Part shown: piece after piece, positions 3,393 to 57,667 of the stretch | Layout: each line of letters opens with the position of its first letter | Numbering within the stretch: the first letter of the stretch is position 1 | NCBI GenBank assembly: GCA_003558985.1 | Contig: PWNJ01000038.1 | Span: forward strand, 4,990 to 68,989 | Length of the DNA stretch: 64,000 nucleotides | Direction: 5' to 3' | Source of the DNA: a candidate division CSSED10-310 bacterium | Lineage (GTDB): Bacteria > CSSED10-310 | Made by a program: the position numbers and the translations under genes | The notes under the pieces: generated by a model | What the model saw: the letters and a program-made list of their open reading frames with translations, nothing else | What the model was told of the DNA's origin: nothing | Databases searched by the model: none

Positions 3393-3491
3393 GTTGACAT
3401 GATCAATCTTAAAATGATACGTTTACGCGTCGATCAGGATGCATTAGTGTCTGTTGTAACAATTTTGCGATTATAAAGAGGGTTTTTGACA

Positions 3492-14900: not shown

Positions 14901-14946
14901 CAATCACGCGGTCATGCTGCTGAAACGTGATTCCGGAATTCAATAG
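8908..14946 (+). CDS. Giant (2012 aa) fusion membrane protein: TIGR03663-like + DUF2298/YYY domain (split by an acidic insert) + coiled coil + C-terminal NHL beta-propeller
   Basis: N-terminal FHPDERQ (DE motif). FPPEDPWIQGQGINYYYYGQY at about residue 770. D/E/S/T-rich low-complexity insert at residues ~1010-1237. Resumed DUF2298 C-terminal homology (FNTVFKFYIQAW..., LTLDGWAYM). LIRLREEMEEREEQERIARLEAERERERR coiled coil. NHL repeats (FYVADFRNHRVQKF, VLDTFNNRIQKY, ADTGNSRIIRM, ADTGNRRIQVM). Confidence 0.75.
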   Translation: MGSKDQWAELTVKKRRNWLLFFLFLIGLGLRLHGYDWGMPHHFHPDERQIVDFQAPKVNLDVLNPSKSVPLLVRGQWTELNTMLDGMNTKFFAYGPLPMYTLVITVEISDWINSNVRSFAQNRQNMSPETRQKINEWFPRVKTPGGRVLTGRIISAIFSALTILVIFKIGKYLYNAKIGYLAAALFTFTVLSIQQAHFLVVDGPQTTLVALAMFFLVRTAMGERRRDYYLAGIFIGLAMATKFSTAPIALSYILAHVLSMTLGRRRDKADWFHWIAGGIVAIVAMTIVMPFWILDSETFFRDIQAQRNMVTGVADLPYTIQFEGTMPMVYMIKNMILWSLGLPLGLAAYIGLIAAIRRIWKKPEDIGNIVILSFVIPLLYLNGTFHAKFLRYTLVTIPFFVIFAARWLHGMKSWTARPVARTVTAAVLLGTIGWALAFQTIYTSPHTRLQASDWVYENIPAGKNIVLESSWDDSMPVTTDRGNAGRYTSRQLGIYREPDDHRRAAAMAEILEWGDVVILSSRKHYGSVTRVPNRYPISTNFYKLLFHERLGYQHVKTFDNPPSLGRLRFRDDLADESFRVYEHPRVDIFVKESCLTADQIQALLIAPPPEVADMTYRELMTRRPPTEIGPHVNYPVIRWLIALYIFGLISIPFAFVIFSKFDHKGYPFTKIIGLLVTAYLAWLLPSIEWFPFSRTLIIAVIIVVAWISHTLYRYHKKAIHTHFKQRWWSIAGYEILFLVVFCIFGLLKSYNPNIYWSESSMDFGFLNAVVRAETFPPEDPWIQGQGINYYYYGQYLAGYMTKLTGVEPHYGYNLFFITIPALVALSIAAILLALTRRVWVALIGVLFSIFIGNLDGLTQMANIWVRNARGTDMYRLATGFQTTIGWVFNLGRQDPHFRFFRSAHELIRPTVHEFPFWSYNFMDLHAHTVATMLTAFFLALQLVLLRNCKGGLRLFGETRTQQTATMGILFISYGAMISTNSWDLPTQAIILLLVSVWVMIFAGRQPKYRMETAERIPDDRTPDSIETQPSESADEEVADNGTHPDKSSVKPNSDQNEAVESADESGTSDDTRRSIPHEVNDVSDAESKMQADAEPLADRNGDTEQDDVVSEEVSKKTDIPEAPETNETDMEFETRVETDKADESDSDIEGAVNTDTELDRKATATTDVQKTDSDSDSMEQLNEQSETEIGVSDDSNTILSDDDVLDRADDIETQDTPDDSTLKPNESEKDTDKINISLVARIRDGCTRFVRWLIPELCDSGFFLWRLLWPVALVIIGGMTLHLPYLNHFYRHEMGLGTLWKYRQTTNLDGFLTMFGFFLFIFITQFIRWWWDVQKDRGRSPMQALCLLIGVITVLIVVWYGFLNVPERGVDYSVLLISIFLILLILSILIEGYPSLNEAFPLLLALCAVGITAGCELVFVRDFYQGGEHRRFNTVFKFYIQAWFMFAIASAYLLAVRSRIRVRFYKHNLTKNLVRTSAWVWNLVFIFLLAGTLIFTFKGVHARHHNRDFQQGWRLAGRTPTADMPLTLDGWAYMKLDYRPVNEYRAIHWLQNNIKGTPVILEATGADYLYQYGNISGNTGLPTVLGWWSHVDQREYLVRQGRGEGQRDRKIDTGRIRRDIETIYNSVDIPKVLSLLGQYRVRYIFVGPTEREEYNPVGLQKFKQMSTFLTPVYTNPDVVIYRVNDYGHSVDLAETIQDNQALIRLREEMEEREEQERIARLEAERERERRMMQQPARALTAGGRGRARGMFEEPRSMTIAPDGSFYVADFRNHRVQKFAPDGSWQNMWGSSGNMPGEFNDICDVAANSTHVFVLDTFNNRIQKYTHDGQFVQLIIAQGQSVSHPRGIAVDEEYIFMADTGNSRIIRMNLAGRETRVIGRAGRGQLQFTNPVGLTIHNNEVYIADTGNRRIQVMSRDGEFLREYPTEGWEAEVYNEPYLAVAEDGTIYYSDPSRGTVRMIDQQGQPVGRLTAAADGRRLSLPMGLAIDNNGNVYVVDAGNHAVMLLKRDSGIQ

Positions 14947-15587: not shown

Positions 15588-18536
15588 TCACGCAGCAGAA
15601 TCAACCTTCATAACATGTATTATTGGTTCAGGCCATTCCGTGTCGGATTCCCTGTATATTGTTTTTATCGTGACATTGGGGAAAAGCTCTTTTATCTGCT
15701 GCATGATATACATATTACGGTTGTAGTGATCCAGCACAAAAGCGATTCCCTTGTCCGGTGAATGCTCCTTGTCACGAATAGCCGTGAGATTATCCTGGAT
15801 TTCTTCGTTAGTAATAAAATCCGGTTCCCGGCCGCCAGTAATGGCAAAAACATCACCTGGAATTCGGTAACAAATAAACTTGGGAGTGTCCAGAAAATGG
15901 CTGTTGCTGACATACACATGATAATCTGCCGATAATTCCAGCGCTTTGTATCCCACTTGAGTATGCAACGGAGCGTAACCGAATTGGGCATGGGGACTTC
16001 GGGCCAGAACATGAAAATACAAATGATATTCGCTGATGCCGATCCAGATCAATCCCGCTGTTAGCCAAAGAATTGCGGGAATGCTATTCAATGCTGGGAG
16101 TTTTGTTCTGGTCAGCAATTGAACGGAGAGAACAAGTCCCAATGCAATCATGATGGCCAGCGGTACGGTAAACTGTATCAGGCGAGTTGCGTCCGGCTCC
16201 GAAAGTAGTCCGGGCAAAAGTCCAAAAATAGCTGCTATAAAAACCCAGAAACAGTTTCGTTTCCCAAAGTGTCGCAGTAAATATGCCAGGCCAATCATCA
16301 TAAAAAAACCGGATATTGCGCTAATAATGGGTATGGATGGCTCAAAAAAATTTCCTACGTCAGCACGAAAATGAAAAATCTGAAGATGCCTCAGAATTGA
16401 ATCCCAAAGCGGCTGCCATGAGCCGCTAAACCGGACCAGATTACCGACAAACAGATGACCGGTACGCTCCAGAAACATTTGCGGATTGTTAATGGCGTAC
16501 AAAAACAATGGGAAAAACATCAACCATGCAAATACTTGCATTACCAGAAGCCCGTGCCAGTTTTTGCGCATAAATTTCGGTGTGGTTATCCATGTATGAA
16601 TACCGATAAGAATCATCATGAACGGGACTCCGCGAAATGAAAAATATGTATGAAGTCCCATACCGATGCTTATGCCGGAAGCCGCATAGTAAAGAAGACG
16701 TTTCCCGACTGAATGACTGTCAACAGCACGGTAAAAAAACCATCCGGTCATAACCATGAATAATGGTGCCAGAACTGCTCGATATCCAGTTCGCGCATAG
16801 GTGAGATTCCAGGCCATTACGGCATAAACAGCCGATGCCGCGAACGCAACATGCCGGTTCCATAAATCCCGGCATAAAAAAAACAGAAACACAACCGTCA
16901 GAAATCCGGCGGCTACTCCAGGTAAATACAACGAATAAACTGACGTTCCGAACAGTCTGAAACTCAGCGCTATCAAGTAAAAATAAAATGTTTCCTTGCC
17001 CCAGGCCTCCTCAGTAAACGGCGTATAGGGCTCACCATCAAGTATTCGATACGCATAGATAGCGTTCCAGGCCGCGTCATTGTTGATACCGGTTGGAACA
17101 GACTGAAGTCTGTAAAAGCGAAGGCCGATTGCTGCAATGAAAACAATAGAAACCAATACAAACGACACTGTTTTTGATCGTTCCGATGTAAGCGTGACAG
17201 ATGAAGGAAAAAGTGTTGAATTCCGAAAACTGGCCCACAAAAGAACTGCGCCGGTGATCAGCAAAACTGCTCCTGAACGAATCATGGGAGATGAAATCCG
17301 AAGCAGAATCATTCCGACCGCTACGCACAGCATTCCGATGATTATTAACCACCGACACAAAGACGGATGGTCTTGAAGATATTTTAACAAACCGGGTTTT
17401 CCCTGTTTTTGTCTGTATTTGAGATACATATATATCCAGAAGATAATAATACCAATTGCCCCAATATCTATTGGCAATCGAACAGCAAGCGGGATGTCGG
17501 GAATAAAACCTTCCTGACGTTGGACTTTCGGTAGTGGTGGAGGTAAAGGAAACTGGATAATCCGGTTATTGATTGTGTCACTGATAAACAGGCGATCGTC
17601 CTGAGTCAGGGCAATACCTGTCGGTCCGTTAAATGCATTTGCACTTGCTCCGTACTTGCCAAACCGGCTATACAGTTTGCCATCGTTTGTGTATACGATA
17701 ACCTTATGGTTGGCAGGTGATGTCACATAAATCATTCCACTATCGTGTATAGCAATATATGCTTCAGTAAACTCTCTGCCAGTCCAGTCATTCACCGGAA
17801 TAATGCGAAGAGTTTGACCATTTTGGTCCAGAACTTTGATTCGATTGTTTCCGGTGTCAGCAACATATACATTGTTGTCCGGACCAATCACAATTCCTAC
17901 AGGATTGAAAAAATGATCCGGCTCCGGCTGACCACTACCCCATGTGGCAGTCAGTTGTCCTTCCGAGTCAAAAACCATGACGGTATGGTGGGACGTGTTA
18001 GTCACATAAACCCGATCCGAAGCGTCAACGGCGATTCCTCGCGGAGCTGAAAATTGTGCTTTTGCCCAGGTCGCTTCCCATGTACCTGATTCATTACAGA
18101 AACGCTGAACACGATGATTCCAGGTATCTGCCACGTAAATATTCCTGTCGGAATCCATTGTTGCGGCTGCTGGATCTTCAAACTGACCGGGATTCTTGCC
18201 GCGGCGTCCCCAGACTCCCAAAGCAGTTCCGTCCGAAGTCAATTCCTGAATTCGGTAGTTTCGGAAATCACTGATAAGAATAGTGTCTGATGGTGTCAGA
18301 GTGACCTGTCGTGGTTCGCGAAACATTCCGGGATCGTCACCCAATCCACCGAAATGCAGATAAGCCGGGTTTTCAACAAATGAATCGGCAGAAACAAGCC
18401 CATATCCACCGGAAAATATTGCCAGAGTTGCAGAAATGACAACGATAATGCTCATGAAAACCAGAGCAAGTCGGTTAGTCTTTTGAATCACCGACATCAT
18501 AATTTTCAGTATCAAGCCTGTCGATTGTCTCTTCAA
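15588..18536 (-). CDS. Large membrane protein: N-terminal TM anchor + NHL-repeat beta-propeller + C-terminal GT-C (GT39/PMT_2/ArnT-like) polytopic glycosyltransferase domain
   Basis: NHL units (RNYRIQEL, NIYVADTWNHRVQRF, ADTGNNRIKVL, DTINNRIIQF) in residues ~70-330, followed by about 12 hydrophobic helices with a GT39-like loop (GINNDAAWNAIYAYRILDGEPYTP). An alternative start near 18500 would reduce the overlap with the upstream GT2 gene. Confidence 0.7.
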   Translation of the reverse strand: MKRQSTGLILKIMMSVIQKTNRLALVFMSIIVVISATLAIFSGGYGLVSADSFVENPAYLHFGGLGDDPGMFREPRQVTLTPSDTILISDFRNYRIQELTSDGTALGVWGRRGKNPGQFEDPAAATMDSDRNIYVADTWNHRVQRFCNESGTWEATWAKAQFSAPRGIAVDASDRVYVTNTSHHTVMVFDSEGQLTATWGSGQPEPDHFFNPVGIVIGPDNNVYVADTGNNRIKVLDQNGQTLRIIPVNDWTGREFTEAYIAIHDSGMIYVTSPANHKVIVYTNDGKLYSRFGKYGASANAFNGPTGIALTQDDRLFISDTINNRIIQFPLPPPLPKVQRQEGFIPDIPLAVRLPIDIGAIGIIIFWIYMYLKYRQKQGKPGLLKYLQDHPSLCRWLIIIGMLCVAVGMILLRISSPMIRSGAVLLITGAVLLWASFRNSTLFPSSVTLTSERSKTVSFVLVSIVFIAAIGLRFYRLQSVPTGINNDAAWNAIYAYRILDGEPYTPFTEEAWGKETFYFYLIALSFRLFGTSVYSLYLPGVAAGFLTVVFLFFLCRDLWNRHVAFAASAVYAVMAWNLTYARTGYRAVLAPLFMVMTGWFFYRAVDSHSVGKRLLYYAASGISIGMGLHTYFSFRGVPFMMILIGIHTWITTPKFMRKNWHGLLVMQVFAWLMFFPLFLYAINNPQMFLERTGHLFVGNLVRFSGSWQPLWDSILRHLQIFHFRADVGNFFEPSIPIISAISGFFMMIGLAYLLRHFGKRNCFWVFIAAIFGLLPGLLSEPDATRLIQFTVPLAIMIALGLVLSVQLLTRTKLPALNSIPAILWLTAGLIWIGISEYHLYFHVLARSPHAQFGYAPLHTQVGYKALELSADYHVYVSNSHFLDTPKFICYRIPGDVFAITGGREPDFITNEEIQDNLTAIRDKEHSPDKGIAFVLDHYNRNMYIMQQIKELFPNVTIKTIYRESDTEWPEPIIHVMKVDSAA

Positions 18537-36654: not shown

Positions 36655-37632
36655 TTGAAAGAGCGAAAAATTTTGATTGTTGGAGGTGGTTACCTTCTGG
36701 TGCAGGAAATCCTGGATAGTATCTCTGCCAGTTCACTGCCAATCGCAAAGATACAAATTGTCAGCGAAAAAGAACGTGTTGGGGAAATACACGATTTCAA
36801 TAATCAGCCTGTTCCTGTTACTGATATTGATGTTATGTATGAAGAAGGGTATGACGCAGCTATTTTATTGTCGCCGCTTAAAGATCTGAAATCATTCACC
36901 CAAACGATGGTTATGAGTAAAGTCCCTATTCTTGATATGGCAAATCTTTACAAAGCTTCGAGCGAACTGCCCGTTTTAGTACCTGATACGGAGTCATTTG
37001 CACTGAAAAATCTGCCCATGGTTGCAATTGTACCAACCAGAACAGCTCACGCTCTGACAACAATTCTGCACGAACTGACAAATTGCGCACAGTGGAGTCA
37101 CGCAACGGTGTGTTCCATTCAGGGCGCCGCCTGTCAAGGATCAAGACAGGGCTTGGATGAGTTGTTCGATCAAACACGAAGTATTCTTGGTTTCACTGAG
37201 ATTCCCAAAGATGTATTCCCTCAACAACTGGCTTTCAATGCATTCCATTCATCAAATGTTAACGATGAAAACAGGGCTATGTGCGAGCAGTCAAGATTTC
37301 TGCTACAACGAGACGATTTTGTTGTCAGCTCGGACATTCTATGGTGCGGTTTCTTTGTTGGTATTATCGGCACGGTTTGGCTTCATGCCGATTCGGAAAT
37401 CTCCATTGAACAAGTTAACAATGCGTTTATGCAATCCAAAGCAGTTACACTTCAGAACCCGCTAAACAGCATTATACAAACTGCAGGAAGTGATACTTTG
37501 GCGCTAGGGAATATAACTCTGGTTGATGACAACACTCATTGTGTAACCATTCGATTTGCAATGGATAACCTGCATCGAGGTCTTTCAACATCATTAACAA
37601 GACTCCTGAAAAAGGTATGGATCAATGCCTGA
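36655..37632 (+). CDS. Semialdehyde dehydrogenase (Asd/ArgC-like) family protein, apparently lacking the catalytic Cys
   Basis: Rossmann N-terminus ILIVGGGYLL (TTG start). At the position of the conserved N-C-S/T-T active-site motif it has a V-P-T-R-T-A segment. Length is that of the short Asd form. Confidence 0.4.
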   Translation: MKERKILIVGGGYLLVQEILDSISASSLPIAKIQIVSEKERVGEIHDFNNQPVPVTDIDVMYEEGYDAAILLSPLKDLKSFTQTMVMSKVPILDMANLYKASSELPVLVPDTESFALKNLPMVAIVPTRTAHALTTILHELTNCAQWSHATVCSIQGAACQGSRQGLDELFDQTRSILGFTEIPKDVFPQQLAFNAFHSSNVNDENRAMCEQSRFLLQRDDFVVSSDILWCGFFVGIIGTVWLHADSEISIEQVNNAFMQSKAVTLQNPLNSIIQTAGSDTLALGNITLVDDNTHCVTIRFAMDNLHRGLSTSLTRLLKKVWINA

Positions 37633-37987
37633 GCTTACTCCATCGCTAAGAAAAACATCCTTTGTTTTGAGTGTTTTTCTTTTAATTTCATCCACCGCGG
37701 GATGCGATATGATAAAAACATGGTTCGAAAAAACTGCTGAACAAACAGTCATCCAACCGATAGATAGAGCCAGCAGGACAAAACTTGCCACAGACCTTCG
37801 AACGATAAATCGCGCATTGGAAGTGTTTCACGCTCAAAATGGAAGATATCCTGATTCGTTGGATGAGCTGACAACATTTGGCGCTATAAGCTATATCCCG
37901 CGTGAACCATTTGGTGGAGATTGGATATATGACCGTTACTCCGGAACGGTTAAGAGCAGCACTTATCCGGAGGTGACCCCGCGTTAG
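37625..37987 (+). CDS. Lipoprotein with a type II secretion pseudopilin GspG-like C-terminal domain but no prepilin leader
   Basis: Lipobox LISSTAGC. LEVFHAQNGRYPDSLDEL...PREPFGGDWIYD resembles the GspG globular domain (NGRYP...DPWG..Y.Y). Confidence 0.45.
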   Translation: MPELTPSLRKTSFVLSVFLLISSTAGCDMIKTWFEKTAEQTVIQPIDRASRTKLATDLRTINRALEVFHAQNGRYPDSLDELTTFGAISYIPREPFGGDWIYDRYSGTVKSSTYPEVTPR

Positions 37988-37996
37988 GAGATATCT

Positions 37997-40102
37997 ATGA
38001 ACAAGTTTCTTAAATATGATCCGAAATATGGCATGTTTCGATTGCCAATGGGCTACTCGATGGGTGATCTTGATACTATTCGAATGATTTTTGGGAAAAA
38101 TACCGATAATGCATCTATATCCTTGCCCGTCTTACCTCCACAACTCGATAATATAAATGATAGCAACGAAAAAGGGTATCTGGTTTTTCCTCCCGAACAA
38201 ATAAGTGATGACATTGACCTGTTTGTTGAAAAAACACTTAAACATGTTCGAAAACTGAAGGAAAAAGGATACGACTATGAGCATCCTGATTTTAAAAAAT
38301 ATCTGGAAATAAGAGATGATGTCATTAATCATGTAGCTGAAAGCCTGGAAAATGTTATCGAACAGGAAAGAAGATTGGGTCTGTTCAATTTGTTCTGGCT
38401 GGTTGTAGCACAAATTTGCATCGACAGCTTAAATGATGTTATTGCCAGAGCTGATGCAAGTCTGGATACTCGATTTGCCGTTCATCCGCATATCAGAAAT
38501 ATGCTGAAACAATCCCTTGAACGAACTTACGAAAAATTGAATTATCGAGATGAATTGTTCAGACAGTCCATGCCATTTTATAAAATCACTATCCTAACGC
38601 GACTTGGGGCATCATTTAACTACAATTTCGTTAACGATATTGTCGATATTCAGCTTTGCCTGCTGGAAAACAATATACCCCCAGTAGATCCCTTGCATAT
38701 GATTAAGCATCTCCTGGTTGAAGAAAACATTCAGTACTTTATCACTTATCAGGATTATCAGAAATTCTATTTCAGCATAAAGTCACATGTTGATTCTGCT
38801 ATTGAAGGAAATGAAAACTGGATAAAAAGCATATTGACATTCTCGTTGGGAATCTCAGAAAACATGTTGCATAAAATTGATTCAAATATTGTCGTTTTTG
38901 AACCCAGATTTATTTTTACCATTCAGGACAGGCTAAAAAGGATCCCTCTAATGCTGCCGGGAAAGAATACACGAAAAAAATGTCTGATTGATGAAGTGGA
39001 TGAAAGAGCATTTGATCAAATGATTCTGGATTTCGTAACGCTTGCAAGAGAATTGCAAAAAGCTGAAATCATCAGTTATTTTCGGAAGAAAATTAAAATG
39101 TTGGGTAATCATGGTGTCACAAAAGAGAAAAACCGAAAGAAATCTGCAATGATACCAGACAGAATTACTTATAATATGGATTCAGGTACAATTGTTAAAG
39201 ACTTGAGAAGTAAAACAATAATGTTCGTTGATCTACGTGCATCAACAGAACTGGCTTCAGGTACAATATCCAGTAGTCAGCTAATAAAAACCCTATACGC
39301 TTTCTTTGATCCTGCTTTGGATATAATTGCTCATTTTGGAGGACATATTCGTTTTTTTGCTGGTGATGCGATATTGGCTACTTTCAGTAATGATCATACA
39401 GAAAACAATGCGACAATAAAAGCAGTGCAGGCAGGGGTTATGATTCAGAAAATGCTGGCACAAAAGGTCAAGCATTATACTCTGCCACTGGAAGGAGTTG
39501 GTATTGGCATCCATGTAGGAGTTCTTGAGAATGCATATATTTTCAGTGACGAAAGAGGCAAATTCAGTACCGTTATTGGGCTCTCTGCTAACGTTGCCAG
39601 CAGGCTTAGTTCAGGTAAATCTTCCAGTCGTGAACGAAGAGCGGACCCTTTGTTTAAAAGAGAAATCAACGATCTTCTTCAGGATATCCTGGAAAACACA
39701 AAGAATAGAATAAGCTCTGGTGTGCGAGATAACATCGTTAACATTTTCAATGAGTTTGTGGGCAGTGAGCCACAACAAGACAAGTATGCAAAAGCGTTTC
39801 ACAAGCTGCCGGAAGTTAAAGACAAACCAGGAATGTTAAGAGTAAATGTTGTTAATGGTGTACTCCACAATAACGGTATCGCATTATCTGATGCAGCGCT
39901 GAACGATGTCAGAAAACGGCATGTTTTGCAAGAACGGAACTGGAGGGATAATATTGAATATATATATATCAACAATGAAAAACAGGCAGAAATTGTTTTT
40001 CGGCCTGTAGGAGATGCTCATTTGAAGGGAATTCCGGAAACCACTATGGTATGGTCTGCCCAACCTTTAGAAGAAACTGGTGATGAAACTGAGAGTATAT
40101 GA
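37997..40102 (+). CDS. Class III adenylate/guanylate cyclase with a large uncharacterised N-terminal region
   Basis: The C-terminal CHD domain is IMFVDLRASTELAS...HFGGHIRFFAGDAILATF...GIGIHVG. The roughly 400 N-terminal residues carry no recognisable motif. Confidence 0.65.
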   Translation: MNKFLKYDPKYGMFRLPMGYSMGDLDTIRMIFGKNTDNASISLPVLPPQLDNINDSNEKGYLVFPPEQISDDIDLFVEKTLKHVRKLKEKGYDYEHPDFKKYLEIRDDVINHVAESLENVIEQERRLGLFNLFWLVVAQICIDSLNDVIARADASLDTRFAVHPHIRNMLKQSLERTYEKLNYRDELFRQSMPFYKITILTRLGASFNYNFVNDIVDIQLCLLENNIPPVDPLHMIKHLLVEENIQYFITYQDYQKFYFSIKSHVDSAIEGNENWIKSILTFSLGISENMLHKIDSNIVVFEPRFIFTIQDRLKRIPLMLPGKNTRKKCLIDEVDERAFDQMILDFVTLARELQKAEIISYFRKKIKMLGNHGVTKEKNRKKSAMIPDRITYNMDSGTIVKDLRSKTIMFVDLRASTELASGTISSSQLIKTLYAFFDPALDIIAHFGGHIRFFAGDAILATFSNDHTENNATIKAVQAGVMIQKMLAQKVKHYTLPLEGVGIGIHVGVLENAYIFSDERGKFSTVIGLSANVASRLSSGKSSSRERRADPLFKREINDLLQDILENTKNRISSGVRDNIVNIFNEFVGSEPQQDKYAKAFHKLPEVKDKPGMLRVNVVNGVLHNNGIALSDAALNDVRKRHVLQERNWRDNIEYIYINNEKQAEIVFRPVGDAHLKGIPETTMVWSAQPLEETGDETESI

Positions 40103-50116: not shown

Positions 50117-50165
50117 TTGACAAAAATAAAAAAACAGGATAAAATTGTATGTGTTTGGTGGAGGG
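50117..50165 (+). promoter_or_regulatory. Strong sigma70-type promoter (TTGACA-17 nt-TAAAAT) and RBS in front of the T3SS gene set
   Basis: TTGACA at 50117-50122, TAAAAT at 50140-50145, and GGTGGAGGG at 50157-50165 before ATG 50174. The region is embedded in about 180 bp of A-rich DNA. Confidence 0.6.
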
Positions 50166-50173
50166 ATTGCCTG

Positions 50174-50869
50174 ATGAATTTCGGTGAACATATTCAAAGT
50201 GAATTTATAAACCAGTTTTCAAATCTTTTACACACGTATGAAAACGCAAATATAAATGCCAATCATAAGGAATGCCAGAGGATTCGTGAGTTCACAGTTA
50301 AAACTTTGAAAATGATAGATGCATATCCTTTCTATGTAATCGAAAACATACACCCGGAATGGATTAGACAAAAACTGGAGAGTTTCAATAACTGCTGCAG
50401 GTCAAAGTTATTAAAAAGCATTGCGGAGTATGACAGCGTTAAAGTTCGCAATATAGTTAAGTCATTTCAATTTAAAACAACTGGAACTTGCATCCGTAAT
50501 TGTTGCCACAATAGCACTTTGACCAAACTTATAGATGGATGGCCGATCATGACAAGTCGAACACGGTTTTCAAACAGTTCATGGAAACAATTGCCGTTTA
50601 TGAAATGGGAACGCATTGAATATCTTGTTCAGTGTCTGAAGAAAAAGTATCCGGGCACTTCGCTAGCAGAATTGTATTACTGCGAATGGAATCAAATGAG
50701 ACAATCAGACAAAAATACAGCTCTGATATGGCTTGAACATAAGTTGATGCCTGATCAAGGTCGGCTTTTTGTCGAACAGATTAAAAGCATGCCACACATA
50801 AAAAATCGTACGAACAATTATTGTGATTCGATTCTTCAAAAAGTGATGGTAGGAGGATTCAAAAAATGA
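50174..50869 (+). CDS. Hypothetical protein, first gene of the T3SS operon (position compatible with SctK)
   Basis: 231 aa, Cys-containing, no family recognisable by eye. Gene order only. Confidence 0.3.
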   Translation: MNFGEHIQSEFINQFSNLLHTYENANINANHKECQRIREFTVKTLKMIDAYPFYVIENIHPEWIRQKLESFNNCCRSKLLKSIAEYDSVKVRNIVKSFQFKTTGTCIRNCCHNSTLTKLIDGWPIMTSRTRFSNSSWKQLPFMKWERIEYLVQCLKKKYPGTSLAELYYCEWNQMRQSDKNTALIWLEHKLMPDQGRLFVEQIKSMPHIKNRTNNYCDSILQKVMVGGFKK

Positions 50870-51480
50870 TTAATGCAGAACCAAGAATTATACTTAAAGA
50901 ATCCAGAGATGCACACAACAAGGCTGACAAGATTATTGATTCAGCTAAATCTGAAGCGCATTCAATAATCAAAAACGCTTTGGATGAAGCGGATAAAATT
51001 ACTGAAAATGCACATATCCAGGGTGTTAAATCAGCCAAGAAGGAGGCTCTTAAACATATTGTTATGGCAAATAATCATCGGCGAAATACAGAACAGGCTG
51101 TCTTGCCTGAGTTAGTTAACTTGTGCATGGATACGGTGTACTTATTTTTATCGCAGTATCAGAAAAGTCATAAAGATTGGATTGTTCTACGAGTGAAAAA
51201 AGGTTTGGAGTATTTACAGGATCAAAGAACGGTAAAAGTACTTTTGAATCCTGATGATTTATCATCACAGGTTGACAAGCTGGAGATGATTTCCAAAACG
51301 ACAGTTTTGAATGGTTCAGTAAAACTTGTTGCGGATAACAGAATCAGTAAAGGTGATTGTCTGTTTGAATCGCCGGAGGGTTCCATAAACGCGACTTTAA
51401 AAGACAGCATTGATTCGATTCGTTCAATTTTGCTTAAAAGTAAAACCAGCTTTGATACGGAAGGAGATATTTATGAGTAA
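50866..51480 (+). CDS. sctL: FliH/SctL-like stator protein of the T3SS ATPase
   Basis: N-terminal Ala/Glu/Lys helical region and a C-terminal FliH-like block (VKVLLNPDD...VADNRISKGDCLFESPEGSINATL). Confidence 0.45.
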   Translation: MINAEPRIILKESRDAHNKADKIIDSAKSEAHSIIKNALDEADKITENAHIQGVKSAKKEALKHIVMANNHRRNTEQAVLPELVNLCMDTVYLFLSQYQKSHKDWIVLRVKKGLEYLQDQRTVKVLLNPDDLSSQVDKLEMISKTTVLNGSVKLVADNRISKGDCLFESPEGSINATLKDSIDSIRSILLKSKTSFDTEGDIYE

Positions 51481-51790
51481 CAATTATATTAATTCAATTC
51501 AAACGATCAGTAATCAGTCTGGATCGGAACAGAGTCTTGCCAGCGCAGCATTACAAAAACCGGATGTGCCTGAATTTCCAATACTGGAGGACATACTTAA
51601 TACAGGAAATGCAACTTCTGTTATTCGGGAAATCAAGTCTTTGTGCTGTCTTCTGGATAATTGTCCGGTAAAACATCATGACCTTGAAACGGTTAATAGA
51701 ATTTGGTCTGCCAGGGAGGGGTTAAAAGAAACAGCAAAACTGTTTGAAAAACTCCAGGAATTGGACAACAAAAGAAAACATATCGCATGA
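51473..51790 (+). CDS. Small T3SS-associated protein (position of the YscE-like needle co-chaperone)
   Basis: 105 aa. Overlaps the upstream gene (ATG 51473 vs stop 51480). Gene order E-F-G as in the Ysc/Psc family. Confidence 0.25.
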   Translation: MSNNYINSIQTISNQSGSEQSLASAALQKPDVPEFPILEDILNTGNATSVIREIKSLCCLLDNCPVKHHDLETVNRIWSAREGLKETAKLFEKLQELDNKRKHIA

Positions 51791-51803
51791 AAGGCTGGAT
51801 AAC

Positions 51804-52148
51804 ATGATCTATATTCAAGGTACAAACAACAATCTGACACCAATGGTCAACTCGAAACCCGAACCGAATGAAGGAAAATTCTCCAGAATTTTAAATGGTC
51901 TGGGACGCTTCGTTGGCGCTACCGGAAGAGCTGCGGCGCACTTGATACCAGGCGCTTCTGTAATATGCGAGTTTTTCAGTCTTTGTGGATTGGGAGACAG
52001 TTCGCCGAATTTCGGTGGAATGATGCCGAATGACATGCTGGGAATTCAGCAGGAAATGCTGCAGGAAGCAAGAATGTATACGTTGATATCCAATATTATG
52101 CGACTTCGGCATGATGCAGCTATGAGTGCGATAAGAAATATAAAGTAG
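51804..52148 (+). CDS. Putative needle/inner-rod family subunit (SctF/SctI-like)
   Basis: 114 aa. The C-terminus ...RLRHDAAMSAIRNIK resembles the conserved needle-family C-terminal K/R-D-x5-I-x-N motif. It is followed by a TPR chaperone-like gene. Confidence 0.3.
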   Translation: MIYIQGTNNNLTPMVNSKPEPNEGKFSRILNGLGRFVGATGRAAAHLIPGASVICEFFSLCGLGDSSPNFGGMMPNDMLGIQQEMLQEARMYTLISNIMRLRHDAAMSAIRNIK

Positions 52149-52175
52149 ACAGTTTATTGAAGAAGGAGAAATGCA

Positions 52176-52616
52176 ATGGAGACTATGCAATTAACAGATG
52201 TTATGACAATGACTGCAGATGTTATGGATCGAAATGACACAAAACAATCGTTGGCCGAAATTATGATTGAAGCAGGATATATGCTTGGTTGTGCGGGACA
52301 ATACGGTAATGCTGAAAGAATTTTCCGGAGTATTATTGCTGTGTTTCCCAAACGAATAGGTGGTTGGCTGGGGTTGGGTAATGTGTTGCTAATGCAGGGT
52401 CAGATTGAGGAAAGTGAAGAAGCGTACGAAACAGTTTTGGAAAATGATCCATCCGATCCGGCAGCAAGAGCATTTTTGGGTGAATTATATTTATGCTCAG
52501 GAAGATATGAAGCAGGACGCGAAATTCTTAGCTCTGTATTCCACGATTATCCCGATATGCAGGTAGGTGCATGGGCATGGAATTTACTTCAGCTTAGTGG
52601 AGAATTACAAAAATGA
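52176..52616 (+). CDS. TPR-repeat T3SS chaperone-like protein (YscG/class II chaperone-like)
   Basis: 146 aa with 3 TPR-like helix pairs (AGYMLGCAGQYGNAERIF..., LGNVLLMQGQIEESEEAY..., LGELYLCSGRYEAGREIL). Confidence 0.45.
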   Translation: METMQLTDVMTMTADVMDRNDTKQSLAEIMIEAGYMLGCAGQYGNAERIFRSIIAVFPKRIGGWLGLGNVLLMQGQIEESEEAYETVLENDPSDPAARAFLGELYLCSGRYEAGREILSSVFHDYPDMQVGAWAWNLLQLSGELQK

Positions 52617-53011
52617 GCGCTCTTGTTGGAACATCGGGAGTAACACAGGTATCTGGCAACATTTTATCTGAAGTTAACAGAAAGCCCAAATCAAATGCTT
52701 CATCTTTTAAAGCAGTTATGAAGGAATGCCAAAATCATTCCTTGTTCCCCTCATCGATCTCAGCCAATACATCCGTTAACCTTGAATCAGCAAAACAATC
52801 TGCCATAAAAATAGTTTCCGATCTGGAAACTCAAAGCAGACAGATGAACAAAACTCTGCAAAAGCTGTTAACAGGTAATGATATGAATTCATCTGAGTTG
52901 CTGGCATTACAAGGAAAAATGCTAAACTTTCAACAGTATGTAATGGCTGTTTCCAAAACTGTTGAATCATTTGTTAACTGCATCAGAACAACTTTACAAA
53001 CACAGGTCTGA
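52613..53011 (+). CDS. Putative inner rod protein (SctI-like)
   Basis: 132 aa, immediately upstream of sctJ as yscI is in Yersinia. Predicted helical C-terminus (VMAVSKTVESFVNCIRTTLQTQV). Confidence 0.3.
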   Translation: MSALVGTSGVTQVSGNILSEVNRKPKSNASSFKAVMKECQNHSLFPSSISANTSVNLESAKQSAIKIVSDLETQSRQMNKTLQKLLTGNDMNSSELLALQGKMLNFQQYVMAVSKTVESFVNCIRTTLQTQV

Positions 53012-53013
53012 TT

Positions 53014-53802
53014 ATGCTTAGCCATATCCTGAAAGCATTAAAACAATACTCAATAATTTTGCTGCTGTTTATAATGGTAACTGGATGCAAAACCGAACTG
53101 TATCACGGTTTGACTGAATCCCAGGCCAATGAACTCATTCTGGTATTAAACAGATATGGTATCACAGCAAGAAAAAAAAGGGAGTCAGGAAGAAATGCAG
53201 AATGGGTTGTTTCTGTTTCTGAATCAGATGCTGGAAAGGCCTTAAAAGTAATTTTTGAGTACAATTTGCCCACAGAAACACCTCCAGGGTTTAATGAGTT
53301 GTTTCAAAAAGACAGTTTTTTACCAACAAATATCCAGGAACAAACCCGGTTTTTGAGCGCTTTAACCGGAGAATTGCAAAAAACTCTGGAAAAAGATGAT
53401 TCAGTTATCAAAGCAAGAGTTCATATCTATAATGGTGGCATAGAACGAAGTAACCGACGATCAACTGAAAAGAATAGGTCCGCTGCAGTTTTACTGAAAA
53501 CTGCACCTTACAGTAACCGGGCTGCTGTACTGGATGATGATGCTGTAAAATCCCTGATTGCAGCAAGTGTTGGTGCGATGTCCGAAAATGATGTAACCGT
53601 AATAAGAACTGAAGGCACCATTTGGTACAGTTCAATTACTTCCGAAGAGGACTCTCAAAGTCACGTGATAGATCGTCACGTTAAATTTGTTATAGCAATT
53701 GCTATGGGGTTGCTGGTTATTGGTATCGTTTTGGTCGGTTATGCAAAATCAGTAATGCGACAAAAAAAATCGGAGGAAAGTCAGGATGATTTGCAAAATT
53801 GA
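53014..53802 (+). CDS. sctJ: T3SS inner-membrane ring lipoprotein SctJ (YscJ/PrgK/EscJ family)
   Basis: Lipobox MVTGCKTELYHGLTESQANELILVLNRYGI closely matches the YscJ N-terminus. C-terminal TM. 262 aa. Confidence 0.75.
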   Translation: MLSHILKALKQYSIILLLFIMVTGCKTELYHGLTESQANELILVLNRYGITARKKRESGRNAEWVVSVSESDAGKALKVIFEYNLPTETPPGFNELFQKDSFLPTNIQEQTRFLSALTGELQKTLEKDDSVIKARVHIYNGGIERSNRRSTEKNRSAAVLLKTAPYSNRAAVLDDDAVKSLIAASVGAMSENDVTVIRTEGTIWYSSITSEEDSQSHVIDRHVKFVIAIAMGLLVIGIVLVGYAKSVMRQKKSEESQDDLQN

Positions 53803-55135
53803 CAATCTGAAAGATTCTTTGCAGAAGGTAAGGGATACCATTAAACAATGCAAAGTGTTTCAGTTTATTGGTCAAATTGATCATATTCAAGGTGTTACTA
53901 TGGCTGCTAAACTTCAAAATGCAAAAATAGGTGAAGTGTGCAAAATTGTTAGCAACAATGCGATCTCATATGCAGAAGTAGTCGGTTTTACCAAAAAAAC
54001 ATGTACACTTATGCCCTACACCCACACATACGGTATGCAACCTGATTCCAAAGTAATACCAACAGGTCATAGCTTCAAGCTACTGTGTCATTCCAATATG
54101 ATGGGATGTATCATAAACGGTCTGGGAAAAATTATATCATATGACGAAGACAAGTCATTTACTCCTGAAAACGCATCTTATATTACAATAAAAAACAACG
54201 CTCCAAATCCAATGACAAGAAAAATGATAACTGAAACATTACATACAGGCATTAATATTGTCGATGCTTTTACTACAATTGGTAAAGGACAAAGAATTGG
54301 CATTTTTGCAGCAGCAGGAACAGGAAAAACAACGTTGATGTCGCAGATAGTGAAATCTGTTAATGCTGATGTTATTGTGATTAATCTGCTTGGCGAACGA
54401 GGTCGGGAAGTAAAAGAATTCCTGGATAATACTCTGGATGATAAAACACGAATGAAATCTGTCGTTGTTATTACCACATCTGATCAGCCCGCAATTGTCA
54501 GATTAAAGTCTGCATATATTGCTACCACAGTTGCAGAGTATTTTCGGGATCATGGAAAAAATGTTTTGTTAATAATGGATTCAGTTACACGTTTTGCACG
54601 TGCTTTACGGGAGATTGGTCTGGCACGCGGAGAAGTACCAACACGATCCGGTTATCCACCATCTGTATTCGCAGAGTTACCTGCATTGCTTGAACGAACT
54701 GGCACAAATGATAAAGGATCGATAACAGCATTGTATACAGTTCTGGTTGCGGGTGATGATCTGAATGAACCTATTGCTGATGAGGTCATGTCGATACTGG
54801 ATGGACATATAATTCTTTCAAGAAAGCTGGCTGCTGCAAACTGTTATCCGGCTATTGATATAATGCAGTCAAAAAGTAGAATAATGAATCAAATAATCTC
54901 AAAAGAACATCGCGAATTGTCGGCTGATTTACTATCAAGCTACGCAATCAGAGCCGCTAATGAAGATGCAATCCGATTTGGCTTTTATGAACCTGGAAAT
55001 AGTATTGATCTGGATGGTGCAATACGAATTAAACCACTAATGGACAAGTTCATGTTCTCTTCGGAAAAGAAATGCCAGTCATTTGAAGATACCATTAACA
55101 TAATGAAAAAGATTGTAGAACAGAAATCAATATGA
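53786..55135 (+). CDS. sctN: T3SS ATPase SctN (FliI/YscN family)
   Basis: GQRIGIFAAAGTGKTTL Walker A, DSVTRFARALREIGLARGEVPTRSGYPPSVFAELPALLERTG (near-identical to the YscN/FliI core), and VLVAGDDLNEPIAD. Confidence 0.85.
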   Translation: MICKIDNLKDSLQKVRDTIKQCKVFQFIGQIDHIQGVTMAAKLQNAKIGEVCKIVSNNAISYAEVVGFTKKTCTLMPYTHTYGMQPDSKVIPTGHSFKLLCHSNMMGCIINGLGKIISYDEDKSFTPENASYITIKNNAPNPMTRKMITETLHTGINIVDAFTTIGKGQRIGIFAAAGTGKTTLMSQIVKSVNADVIVINLLGERGREVKEFLDNTLDDKTRMKSVVVITTSDQPAIVRLKSAYIATTVAEYFRDHGKNVLLIMDSVTRFARALREIGLARGEVPTRSGYPPSVFAELPALLERTGTNDKGSITALYTVLVAGDDLNEPIADEVMSILDGHIILSRKLAAANCYPAIDIMQSKSRIMNQIISKEHRELSADLLSSYAIRAANEDAIRFGFYEPGNSIDLDGAIRIKPLMDKFMFSSEKKCQSFEDTINIMKKIVEQKSI

Positions 55136-55605
55136 TGCACACAGAATCATACAGGTTTACGTTTGTTTTGAAGAAACTGGAAAGTGATATCTGCCAGCTT
55201 GTCAAACAAAAAAAACAGTTAAAACGAACATTGGATGAATGTGAAAGAGTAATTAAAACCCACAAAGAAGAAGCAGATAATCTGAAAAAAAAGAAGATAT
55301 TCGAAATTCATGACAAGACTGAGTTTACAACGGAAGATATGATTAAGCAATTGAATCTGATAACAGGAATCAGAGTAAAAACAAGGCAAATCCTGAACAG
55401 TGTTTCAAAAGTTGAGTTGAAACGAGCAAACTTGATCAGGAATCAAAGTATTCTGGATGGCAAAATTATAATGCTCGAAAAGGATTTGAATCGTATCAAG
55501 GCGCATAAAGAAAGCGCAGAGGATTCAGTCAAAAGATGGATTAAAAAAACAACAGAAATTAAAGAACAGGACATCACTAGTCTTTATCATAAGGAGATTT
55601 GTTAG
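55132..55605 (+). CDS. sctO: SctO/FliJ-like coiled-coil stalk protein
   Basis: 157 aa, Lys/Glu-rich and predicted all-helical. Positioned directly after the ATPase. Confidence 0.45.
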   Translation: MMHTESYRFTFVLKKLESDICQLVKQKKQLKRTLDECERVIKTHKEEADNLKKKKIFEIHDKTEFTTEDMIKQLNLITGIRVKTRQILNSVSKVELKRANLIRNQSILDGKIIMLEKDLNRIKAHKESAEDSVKRWIKKTTEIKEQDITSLYHKEIC

Positions 55606-55606
55606 G

Positions 55607-56134
55607 ATGAAGATCGTTTCAGAAAGCAAGTGTGTGAATTACCCAGATGATTGTAAAGCTAATCATAACAATCTTTATGGCAATTGTGTCCCAAATAGAT
55701 CAACCAAAGATGAAAAAAGAAGCATTACAGACTTTGCATCAATTCTTGCTGGTTTACAAAATCCAGAACGTACTCTCTTTCTTAAATTGTATACTAATCA
55801 AACAAATGAAAAGCGGAATTGTAAAGATATTCAGGTTTTACTGAAAAAGCTTCAAATTACATCGCAGGCACTGATCAGAATGCCACAATTGGATAAAAGC
55901 GTTAAAATAGAATGCCATTTTAAGAATCTTGGATTGATTGTTATAGAAGCTAAATTGAAAGACAACATCATAATGTTTAATTTGCATTGCTGTCGAAATG
56001 CGTCATTAATAATAAGAAAAAACCTTGGTGCCATCGGTAAAACTCTTCGCGAATCTACCGGACTGCCCCACGGATTCAGAATTACATCAAATAGTACTTT
56101 TCGTGATAAGTCCCAACAAGAAAAGACAAAATAA
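55607..56134 (+). CDS. Hypothetical protein at the SctP (needle-length regulator) position
   Basis: Gene order only. 175 aa, Cys-rich. Confidence 0.2.
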   Translation: MKIVSESKCVNYPDDCKANHNNLYGNCVPNRSTKDEKRSITDFASILAGLQNPERTLFLKLYTNQTNEKRNCKDIQVLLKKLQITSQALIRMPQLDKSVKIECHFKNLGLIVIEAKLKDNIIMFNLHCCRNASLIIRKNLGAIGKTLRESTGLPHGFRITSNSTFRDKSQQEKTK

Positions 56135-56142
56135 AAAAACAA

Positions 56143-57654
56143 ATGTCGGACGTGGAGTTTAAAGTGCGAATAACTAAATCTTACAATGTTCAAGAACTGG
56201 AGATTCGAACAATTCCTGAAGAATATGCAGATTGCATAAACGCCTGGACCAAATGTTTTAACAGTCAGATGTTTAAAAGACACCTTTCCGAAATTATCAA
56301 TGAGATTATAGTACTTCCGGTTTCAACGATACCTCTGTTTCAATTGACGGTAAATGCAACAGAACAGGTGAATGGCCAAATACTGAAGCCTGCTGAGCAA
56401 ATTATGGTAGGACGATCAGCGAAAGCTCAGATACAGATTAGTGAGAAAAGCGTCAGTAACAGGCATTGTCTGGTTGGTTCTGATGGTTCAGGAAGGTTTG
56501 TTGTCAGGGATCTGGGAAGCCTGAATGGAACATTTGCCGATGGACGAAAACTGACCCCGGGGAATGACTATATTTTTTATGATGGTTGCAAGATATCTGT
56601 TGGCAATGTGCCGATAGACATCGTAAAAATGTTCAGCAACACTGTCTGTGATGTGCAAACTGAGATCAAAATATGTCCTTTAGAAAAGAGTGTTTATGGT
56701 AATACCAGGATAAAATATTTACTGAAAATTGGTGATCAACAATACAGGGCCACATTATTTATAGATGAACAAAAACTATATCGAATTGCTTTGATGTATT
56801 TCGGTTTGCAGTACTGGCATGGTGGATGTGTTCCAATGTATAAACCATTATCTGATTTGATAATATCCCGCTTTTTATGCAATTTGAAAAAAACTGTTGA
56901 ATCAAAGCATTCTTTGAAACTGGAATATCAACTATATAATAATCAATTGTCAGAATACATAAATGAATGTCAAAAAAGCTATATTCTTGAAATCCAAACA
57001 CCATTTGGTCGCGATCAAATCGAGTTTAGCTTGGATGCAAGCCACTTGGCTGAAGGTTTACAAAGCGTCTTAAGCAATACCCCAAAAGATATTACAGCAA
57101 GTTTGCCTGAACATATTGGAAAAGCATCGGTTACGTTATGCTGTGTTTGTCCCCCTGTAGTTATGCCTTATAAACAGGCATTTTCGCTGAAAAAAGAAGA
57201 CGTGATACTACCCGGATTGTTGGAAGAACAAAACGATTATCAACCTGAACAGTTAAACAAGATGTTTTTGGTCACGAATACATCTCAGGATAATAGTTTG
57301 GAAATACTCTGCGATGGTAAAATATTCAACGATCGTATTGATTTAACGATTCTTGCAGTTAACGAAAGGAATAGTAACATGACACAGGATCACAATGTAA
57401 GACCGAAAAACTTACAATCAACTACGTGTGAAACAAGCTGTCTGGATATCTCAGATAGACGTTTGGTTCCAGTACAAATTGAAATAGATACTCTGGAGTT
57501 ATCAATTGCCGAGTTGTCAGAGTTGTATGTCGGACAAATTCTGAAATTGAAACGAAAGATTGATGAACCTGTTAACGTAAAAGTAAACGAAACTATGATT
57601 GCAGAAGGAAAGCTGGTGCAGGTTGGTAAAGAATTTGGTGTTGAATTGCTTTGA
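56143..57654 (+). CDS. sctQ: SctQ (FliN/SpoA C-ring) with an N-terminal FHA domain
   Basis: C-terminal SpoA block (LVPVQIEIDTLELSIAELSELYVGQILKLKRKIDEPVNVKVNETMIAEGKLVQVGKEFGVEL). The N-terminal FHA signature is IMVGRSAKAQIQI...SNRHCLV...LGSLNGTF. Confidence 0.7.
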   Translation: MSDVEFKVRITKSYNVQELEIRTIPEEYADCINAWTKCFNSQMFKRHLSEIINEIIVLPVSTIPLFQLTVNATEQVNGQILKPAEQIMVGRSAKAQIQISEKSVSNRHCLVGSDGSGRFVVRDLGSLNGTFADGRKLTPGNDYIFYDGCKISVGNVPIDIVKMFSNTVCDVQTEIKICPLEKSVYGNTRIKYLLKIGDQQYRATLFIDEQKLYRIALMYFGLQYWHGGCVPMYKPLSDLIISRFLCNLKKTVESKHSLKLEYQLYNNQLSEYINECQKSYILEIQTPFGRDQIEFSLDASHLAEGLQSVLSNTPKDITASLPEHIGKASVTLCCVCPPVVMPYKQAFSLKKEDVILPGLLEEQNDYQPEQLNKMFLVTNTSQDNSLEILCDGKIFNDRIDLTILAVNERNSNMTQDHNVRPKNLQSTTCETSCLDISDRRLVPVQIEIDTLELSIAELSELYVGQILKLKRKIDEPVNVKVNETMIAEGKLVQVGKEFGVELL

Positions 57655-57667
57655 AGGGAAAAAGAAT

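Follow-up and report, generated by a model that had tools for sequence, protein, structure and literature searches.

Within a 64,000-nucleotide stretch of DNA from a candidate division CSSED10-310 bacterium (contig PWNJ01000038.1; this whole stretch is hereafter the window), a cluster of type III secretion system (T3SS) genes encodes a SctQ protein, the C-ring component of the sorting platform, that bears a canonical FHA domain at its N-terminus. Judged from its homologues, this FHA-SctQ fusion is real, old and rare: at least 12 divergent, collinear proteins of about 500 amino acids (aa), 20-35 % identical and falling into three lineages within a small group of uncultured bacteria, share the architecture. 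We lean towards a reading in which the FHA of this pod protein recognizes phosphothreonine (pThr) and thereby docks or gates the sorting platform in a phospho-dependent manner.

An active question in the study of injectisomes is how the basal body holds the sorting platform and how the platform exchanges with it. To our knowledge, the link between the two runs from the FHA-like domain of SctD via SctK to SctQ in all studied systems, and no characterised SctQ carries an FHA module. The FHA-like domain of SctD has lost phosphopeptide binding, and how it originated as a signalling module has puzzled the field since 2005. An FHA with an intact pThr site at the membrane-proximal end of SctQ is a candidate case of phosphorylation-controlled pod docking, and may show how FHA domains entered the T3SS architecture. 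FHA domains were already known in T3SS on SctD/CdsD, and FHA scaffolds in type VI secretion systems (T6SS) and Tad-like machines; what is new here is the fusion to SctQ, and in the full-text literature we found no published description of an FHA fused to either SctQ or FliN.

The FHA-SctQ protein and its relatives

The gene is one unbroken reading frame that may start at ATG 56143 (503 aa) or at GTG 56164 (496 aa), the latter being the start used in the NCBI gene call (P0001), and the choice leaves both the FHA and the SpoA domain untouched. A previous reading made from the letters alone (hereafter the sequence-only reading) had described the product as a SctQ with an N-terminal FHA and a C-terminal SpoA/FliN block, and had suggested a Pfam scan for the two domains. 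Both were called above their cutoffs, FHA (PF00498) at aa 88-154 (E=1.7e-16, 60.8 bits versus 20.7) and FliMN_C (PF01052, SpoA/FliN) at aa 442-502 (E=2.2e-15, 56.8 bits versus 23.8), with the GR, SxxH and NGT elements of the FHA signature located at G90-R91, S105-x-x-H108 and N128-G129-T130. The NCBIfam models divide the protein in the same way, its N-terminal part matching FHA proteins and its C-terminus matching the SctQ (TIGR02551) and FliN models.

The proposed identity as SctQ is borne out by the position of the gene between sctP and sctR, by the match of aa 189-503 to SctQ profiles, and by a SpoA1-SpoA2 tail. On TIGR02551 (SpaO_YscQ) the protein scores 57 bits against a trusted cutoff of 100.8, and the last 61 residues alone are matched. 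This shortfall is a matter of divergence and is outweighed by the profile-profile comparison, in which hhalign paired the family profile with that of seven canonical SctQ proteins at 99.3 % probability (E=2.5e-20), aligning aa 189-503 with aa 41-322 of a 324-aa enterobacterial SctQ. Since this span amounts to a full canonical SctQ, the first ~188 residues, FHA included, are an add-on, which consists of two helices and the canonical FHA domain. Furthermore, precomputed matches to PF28396 (SepQ_C) are present on members of the family.

An AlphaFold2 (AF2) model, built from an 11-sequence alignment of the family, reached a mean per-residue confidence (pLDDT) of 71.4, with ~90 in the FHA. From the N- to the C-terminus it comprises two helices (aa 26-55), the beta-sandwich fold of an FHA (aa 62-166), an alpha/beta domain (aa 174-312), a beta domain (aa 329-408), a disordered linker (aa 409-435) and a SpoA domain (aa 441-502). 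The tandem SpoA1-SpoA2 architecture is found here as well, and the SpoA pair of the model superposes on FliM(SpoA)::FliN.

In a word-indexed search covering 5.8 billion proteins, only P0001 itself and P0002 (507 aa, 35 % identity) were retrieved, the latter carrying both domains and being collinear with FHA-SctQ over its whole length. Running HMMER exhaustively over 1.84 billion cluster representatives added nine more full-length relatives of ~500-518 aa at 20-23 % identity (P0019, P0020, P0021, P0022, P0024, P0025, P0027, P0034 and P0083), and throughout the 11-sequence alignment both domains and the junction between them are aligned. A contig scan with a 2-sequence alignment, whose patterns were too lineage-specific, returned no relatives. 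A further homologue search with the 11-sequence profile drew on the same candidate set as the first-sequence search and brought no additional ones. Moreover, an FHA-SpoA fusion is encoded in none of 80 T3SS or flagellar loci obtained by a SctN scan of GTDB species representatives (at most 49 % identity).

The first of the three lineages, A, is represented by nine genomes, namely that of the window, L001, L083, L088, L089, L170, L171, L172 (GCA_016931515.1) and L173, in which the gene order runs from two PmbA/TldD genes and a Holliday-resolvase-like endonuclease gene through the T3SS cluster to clpX, pilBTC and pilSR. ClpX is 68-85 % identical between members, and its nearest counterparts outside the lineage, in Thermodesulfobacteria and Nitrospirae, share ~62 % identity. 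From these comparisons, the cluster of lineage A appears to be vertically inherited. As to base composition, the window has a G+C content of ~45-48 % over its first 24 kb and a lower one, ~36-41 %, over its last 30 kb, and the T3SS cluster stands at 37.3 % versus 43.5 % in the upstream part, its apparent vertical inheritance notwithstanding. Lineage B consists of P0083, encoded on a 58 % G+C contig (L086) in a different and more compact cluster. Lineage C consists of a 470-aa FHA-SpoA protein (FHA E=1.4e-15; FliMN_C E=3.3e-21) that is likewise encoded inside a T3SS cluster, on a 186-kb contig of 67 % G+C with planctomycete marker families (L097). This contig turned up in a metagenome scan seeded with the SctV of L086, which did not find a second T3SS locus of the window lineage.

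The sequence-only reading had also suggested looking for an internal translation start yielding a SctQ-C fragment, and a conserved one was located. The codon, ATG 57379 (M413), falls within the disordered linker, shortly ahead of SpoA2, and its methionine is kept in all 11 aligned members. In each of the six genes whose DNA was examined, a Shine-Dalgarno (SD)-like motif stands at the homologous position (GGAGGAG, GGAGAAGGAA, AGGAGG, AAGGAGG, GGGAGG and AAGGA), with differing encoded residues around the site. Given that such a motif precedes 7.3 % of the codons in these genes, the naive probability of six hits in six genes is ~1.6e-7, a figure that treats as independent genes that are related to one another. 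We strongly infer from this conservation that the gene makes two products, the full-length protein and a 91-aa SctQ-C. In Yersinia, the internally started YscQ-C is essential and serves pod assembly (PMC4295842).

Proposed phosphothreonine recognition and the link to the basal body

Phosphothreonine is contacted in FHA domains by an Arg of the beta3-4 loop, a Ser and a His of the beta4-5 loop, and an Asn of the beta6-7 loop. Among the 11 members, at ~20 % overall identity, G90, R91, S105, N128, G129 and T130 are invariant and H108 is kept in ten, and R91, S105, H108 and N128 align with the same residues of the phosphopeptide-bound FHA of DgcB. Sequence searches of the PDB with this FHA matched the phosphopeptide-binding FHAs of DgcB, Rv0020c/FhaA, GarA/OdhI, Rv1747 and ArnA; the sole T3SS protein matched was the chlamydial CT664/CdsD, and YscD, PrgH, MxiG and EscD gave no match even at E<=10. 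In fold, too, this FHA resembles canonical FHAs far more than it does YscD or PrgH. On the Pfam model Yop-YscD_cpl the protein remains below the cutoff (23.1 versus 33.2 bits), and neither a Pfam match to a SctD periplasmic domain nor a hydrophobic or transmembrane (TM) segment was found in it. Taken together, sequence and model suggest that the FHA of SctQ is not obviously derived from SctD and groups instead with generic pThr-binding FHAs and CdsD. The cytoplasmic FHAs of SctD, for their part, are devoid of the Arg and Ser that bind pThr, and their binding to SctK involves no phosphate (10.1101/2020.09.22.308627; PMC9907115).

The claim of the sequence-only reading that no SctD is present holds for the window and for every related cluster examined; it does not extend to the whole genome, as sctU, sctV and sctC likewise lie outside the window. 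Neither SctD nor a secretin, SctU or SctV is encoded in these 64 kb, and the only FHA there is that on SctQ. Since SctU and SctV are indispensable, a second T3SS locus must exist; it could encode SctD, and so little is proved by finding none in the window. The L086 cluster is more telling in this respect. It forms an unbroken run of sctI, J, N, O, P, Q, fliO, R, S, T, U, the needle gene and sctV with unrelated genes on either side, and encodes no SctD, secretin or SctL. Both L086 and L097 possess sctU and sctV, and a conventional SctD was found in none of ~11 related clusters. On L097, a gene at 13680-14180 (+) encodes a 166-aa protein in which a canonical FHA is joined by a Pro-rich linker to a C-terminal TM helix. 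Its FHA keeps the canonical pThr residues, and by its composition the protein looks like a minimal SctD-type cytoplasmic module devoid of a periplasmic domain, the sole SctD-like element of that cluster.

In the phospho-dependent mechanism that we favour, FHA-SctQ and SctQ-C would assemble pods as in the YscQ and SpaO systems, with SpoA heterodimers binding SctL. SpaO's N-terminal domain faces the membrane, and its C-terminal SpoA end binds OrgB/SctL (PMC9907115). As the SctQ N-terminus is thus the membrane-proximal end of the pod, the FHA would be situated where the sorting platform meets the basal body. At this junction it would bind pThr on a partner, for which a membrane-ring or export-gate component, a SctK-like adaptor, or a threonine in the linker of SctQ and SctQ-C itself are candidates, and the docking or exchange of pods, or the loading of substrates, would in that case require a Ser/Thr kinase and a phosphatase encoded elsewhere in the genome. 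The threonine in question, T431, belongs to a motif of the form C-E-T-x-x-hydrophobic-D (C429-D435) in the disordered linker, with C429 and T431 each kept in 10 of the 11 aligned members. Many FHAs prefer pT-x-x-hydrophobic ligands, and the motif, with its hydrophobic residue at +3, has such a form; speculatively, it could be a pThr ligand of the FHA or a contact element. Being part of the linker and also of the N-terminal tail of SctQ-C, the motif might, still speculatively, mediate inter-subunit or auto-inhibitory binding in the manner of GarA/OdhI and DgcB. Besides it, no convincing conserved Thr motif was seen in the tails of the partner proteins.

Between a rewired basal body/sorting platform interface and a phospho-dependent regulation of secretion, the two options offered by the sequence-only reading, the second fits better, as the pThr residues are fully or almost fully conserved in the 11 members and missing from the cytoplasmic FHAs of SctD; its counterpart in the loci, a kinase, phosphatase or phospho-ligand, did not emerge. 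Several observations speak against phospho-dependent docking. Neither a Ser/Thr kinase nor a phosphatase was found in the window or the related loci (Pfam on the window's open reading frames and a Hanks-kinase motif scan). In the SctQ-FHA of L097, Thr replaces the phosphate-binding Ser and Met replaces the Asn, so that, going by these residues, pThr binding may not be a family-wide property. Furthermore, the quality of the AF2 model is moderate, and how it places the domains relative to one another is not to be relied on; and with sctU, sctV, sctC and sctD unseen in the window, the machine may or may not be complete.

Among the alternative explanations, the one that would dispose of the fusion altogether, a frameshift introduced by sequencing or assembly that joined an FHA gene to sctQ, had been raised by the sequence-only reading itself. 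It is ruled out by the recurrence of the fused collinear architecture in at least 12 independently assembled sequences (NCBI, JGI, ENA and Logan), from 35 % down to 20 % identity and with the junction aligned. The main rival, possible if on balance improbable, is that the FHA acts independently of phosphate as an adaptor: it would stand in for SctD's cytoplasmic FHA-like domain, perhaps for SctK as well, and link the pods directly to a basal body without a conventional SctD. The want of a SctD-like gene in all ~11 related clusters, including L086 where sctU and sctV lie beside FHA-sctQ, is consistent with such an adaptor, as are the N-terminal, membrane-proximal placement of the FHA (PMC9907115), the loss from the L097 pThr site of both Ser and Asn, and the presence in that cluster of the minimal FHA-plus-TM protein rather than a full SctD; several family members also match Yop-YscD_cpl. 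However, the invariance of the pThr residues in lineages A and B at ~20 % identity is unexpected for a purely structural FHA, and both the fold and the failure to match YscD, PrgH and MxiG set it apart from the SctD type. Besides, a gene in the SctK position is still present, and SctD may reside, along with sctU, sctV and sctC, in the locus outside the window.

The other alternative, to which we give less credence still, concerns the system as a whole: instead of an injectisome aimed at hosts, the cluster might specify an export apparatus that is T3SS-like but atypical or partial, on the lines of the needle-less T3SS* of Myxococcus (PMC3459982; PMC10433427), with the FHA tying it to contact or predation signalling as in Kil/Tad systems and T6SS. 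This would agree with the FliO gene, reported for Myxococcota and several orders of Pseudomonadota (PMC12248157), with the slightly better scores of SctS and SctT on flagellar models, and with the lack of any recognised secretin, translocon or tip protein in the window. Likewise, the vertical inheritance at a fixed site by clpX and type IV pilus genes in nine genomes resembles the Myxococcus systems (PMC3459982). Unlike T3SS*, however, these clusters encode a needle-like protein, a SctI-like rod and LcrH-type TPR chaperones, and the ATPase of the window lineage groups with injectisome ATPases in a rough neighbour-joining tree. This explanation addresses what the system does, and can hold together with the docking mechanism proposed for FHA-SctQ. 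The fullest version of the phospho-dependent mechanism can be advanced only tentatively, and we rate it as rather unlikely in all its parts: an early-branching injectisome family, marked by FliO, an extended needle protein and flagellar-like SctS and SctT, may have replaced the SctD-SctK-SctQ interface, with a kinase switching pod assembly through the docking of FHA-SctQ to a phosphorylated basal-body or export-gate component, or to the pT431 linker of a neighbouring SctQ or SctQ-C.

The T3SS cluster and other genes of the window

The T3SS genes of the cluster (50117-59673) are all on the + strand, tightly packed, and followed by clpX (Table 1). The cluster is wedged between the Holliday-resolvase-like endonuclease gene and clpX/pilBTC/pilSR, a synteny kept in nine genomes, and it includes the order sctN, sctO-like, sctP-like, FHA-sctQ, fliO-like, sctR, sctS, sctT.

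Table 1. Coordinates of T3SS genes, and of domains and motifs of FHA-SctQ, in the window
Feature	Coordinates	Strand	Basis
Conserved 250-aa protein, encoded just upstream of sctL; SctK candidate on position alone	50117..50869	+	Orthologues in the same place in 7 genomes
SctL (stator, FliH/YscL family)	50866..51480	+	Pfam FliH E=6.6e-12; NCBIfam HrpE/YscL E=6.4e-19
Small conserved protein, ~105 aa	51473..51790	+	Orthologues in L001, L083, L089 and L170; no family match
Needle-like protein with SctF-like C-terminus ...RHDAAMSAIRNIK and N-terminal extension	51744..52148	+	C-terminal half kept in three lineages
TPR class-II-type T3SS chaperone (LcrH/SycD/CdsG-like)	52176..52616	+	Pfam TPR_19 E=2.8e-19
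SctI-like inner rod protein	52613..53011	+	Weak Pfam T3SS_basalb_I match, E=0.0017; C-terminus ...TLQTQV
SctJ lipoprotein (inner-membrane ring)	53014..53802	+	Pfam YscJ_FliF E=3.9e-21; NCBIfam SctJ E=6.5e-39; lipobox ...VTGC
SctN ATPase	53786..55135	+	NCBIfam SctN, 517.6 bits
SctO-like coiled-coil stalk protein, by position	55132..55605	+	N-O-P-Q order; orthologues found; no family match
SctP-like protein, by position	55607..56134	+	L097 equivalent matches Flg_hook/FliK, E=4.3e-9; L086 equivalent weakly
FHA-SctQ, full-length open reading frame	56143..57654	+	Open reading frame listing; Pfam FHA and FliMN_C; conserved full-length family
FHA domain	56326..56640	+	Fold aa 62-166; Pfam core aa 88-154 (nt 56404-56604); pThr residues R91, S105, H108, N128
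SctQ-homologous body, complete (aa 189-503)	56707..57651	+	hhalign against canonical SctQ; AF2 secondary structure
SpoA1-like beta domain (aa 329-408)	57127..57366	+	
SD-like AAGGA, 8 nt upstream of the internal ATG	57366..57370	+	Sequence
Predicted SctQ-C, M413-L503, 91 aa	57379..57654	+	Conserved Met, SD motif, AF2-disordered linker
C-E-T-x-x-hydrophobic-D motif (C429-D435) within the SpoA1-SpoA2 linker, predicted to be disordered	57427..57447	+	11-sequence alignment; low pLDDT
SpoA2/FliN-type domain (aa 442-502)	57466..57648	+	Pfam FliMN_C; PDB profile matches to FliN, YscQ-C 3uep, HrcQ2 and SpaO
FliO-like small membrane protein, 101 aa from ATG 57668	57668..57973	+	Pfam FliO E=2e-5, above cutoff; same gene in all related loci
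Export gate: sctR 57939-58634, sctS 58655-58921, sctT 58852-59673	57939..59673	+	NCBIfam

Searches of Pfam, NCBIfam and PDB sequences gave no match for the 250-aa SctK-position protein, whose invariant residues are P71, H79-P80, P143, R150, W164, Y187, W205 and K209. Neither Pfam nor NCBIfam recognised the window copy of the needle-like protein. The profile of its family, however, matches 7y6c_F, a 43-residue chain of a crystal entry of a T3SS needle/co-chaperone (E=2.8e-5), and the L086 homologues match PF09392 weakly. Copies occur in the window at 51744-52148 (+), on L086 at 11800-12372 and on L097 at 12536-12895, with N-terminal extensions of ~60-130 residues and a C-terminus reading ...RHDAAM(S/N)AIRN(I/M)K. 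On the NCBIfam models LcrH_SycD (E=3.9e-9) and CdsG (E=1.3e-8) the TPR chaperone stays under the cutoffs, and the C-terminus ...TLQTQV of the SctI-like protein recurs in the L086 gene upstream of sctJ.

SctN scores nearly equally on the NCBIfam models SctN (517.6 bits) and FliI (493 bits), and in a rough neighbour-joining tree the ATPases of lineage A form a long branch beside canonical injectisome ATPases. SctR passes the cutoff of NCBIfam yscR, and for SctS and SctT the scores on FliQ and FliR are slightly higher than those on the SctS and SctT models. The profile of SctN, SctS and SctT is intermediate between flagellum and injectisome, consistent with a deep-branching T3SS. Otherwise the window holds an injectisome-type set, comprising SctJ, the SctI-like and needle-like proteins, SctL, SctN and SctQRST, without flagellar rod, hook or motor genes. 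FliO in non-flagellar T3SS has been described for Myxococcota and several orders of Pseudomonadota in a 2025 preprint (PMC12248157). By its gene content and profile scores, the cluster looks like an undescribed, deep-branching family of non-flagellar T3SS. The fusion thus flags a conserved T3SS, apparently inherited vertically in lineage A and present also in planctomycete-like genomes, which mixes flagellar-like and injectisome features and bears on models of injectisome evolution.

Elsewhere in the window, the genes at 3486-6449, 6521-8890 and 8908-14946 (+) and at 15588-18536 (-) encode very large membrane proteins, one of them of 2012 aa, that combine DUF2298, PMT_2 (glycosyltransferase family 39-like) and NHL beta-propeller repeats, and a GT2 glycosyltransferase gene adjoins them. 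At 37625-40102 (+), a gene for a pseudopilin resembling protein G of type II secretion systems (weak, E=4e-4) precedes a 701-aa open reading frame without Pfam match, the pair being flanked by a semialdehyde-dehydrogenase-like gene and nadA.

Comparison with known systems

Outside T3SS, a comparable use of FHA domains is found in T6SS, where threonine phosphorylation exerts control through the FHA scaffold Fha1/TagH together with PpkA and PppA. FHA proteins also occur in the Kil/Tad system of Myxococcus (PMC10433427). FHA-SctQ resembles T6SS Fha1 and Kil/Tad in that an FHA sits in the cytoplasmic apparatus of a secretion machine, as an assembly or activation switch, in FHA-SctQ a proposed one. 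It differs from them in that its FHA belongs covalently to SctQ, a core structural subunit, and no cognate kinase or phosphatase gene lies nearby.

Within T3SS, the closest point of reference for the FHA itself is the membrane-ring protein SctD (YscD, PrgH, MxiG, EscD, PscD) with the chlamydial CdsD. In contrast to these, FHA-SctQ possesses neither a TM segment nor the periplasmic ring-building domains, and the FHA is fused to SctQ instead of to the membrane ring. Furthermore, unlike YscD, PrgH, MxiG and PscD, it keeps the Arg, Ser, His and Asn that bind pThr.

Our protein is also reminiscent of the flagellar FliY and FliM, in which a phospho-signalling module is likewise placed N-terminal to a SpoA-based C-ring protein; the SpoA pair of FHA-SctQ superposes on FliM::FliN. 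In FliY and FliM, this module is a CheC-like phosphatase or a CheY-P-binding peptide, whereas in FHA-SctQ it is an FHA, a pThr reader. Moreover, the system around FHA-SctQ is non-flagellar, with its SctJ lipoprotein, SctI-like rod, needle-like protein and LcrH-type chaperones.

Finally, canonical SctQ proteins (YscQ, SpaO, Spa33, EscQ/SepQ, HrcQ) share with FHA-SctQ the position between sctP and sctR, a body of ~315 residues that aligns from end to end, the SpoA1-SpoA2 tail and a conserved internal start in the linker before SpoA2, which predicts a SctQ-C. What sets FHA-SctQ apart from them is the extra N-terminal module of ~188 residues with its canonical FHA, and the fliO-like gene that follows.

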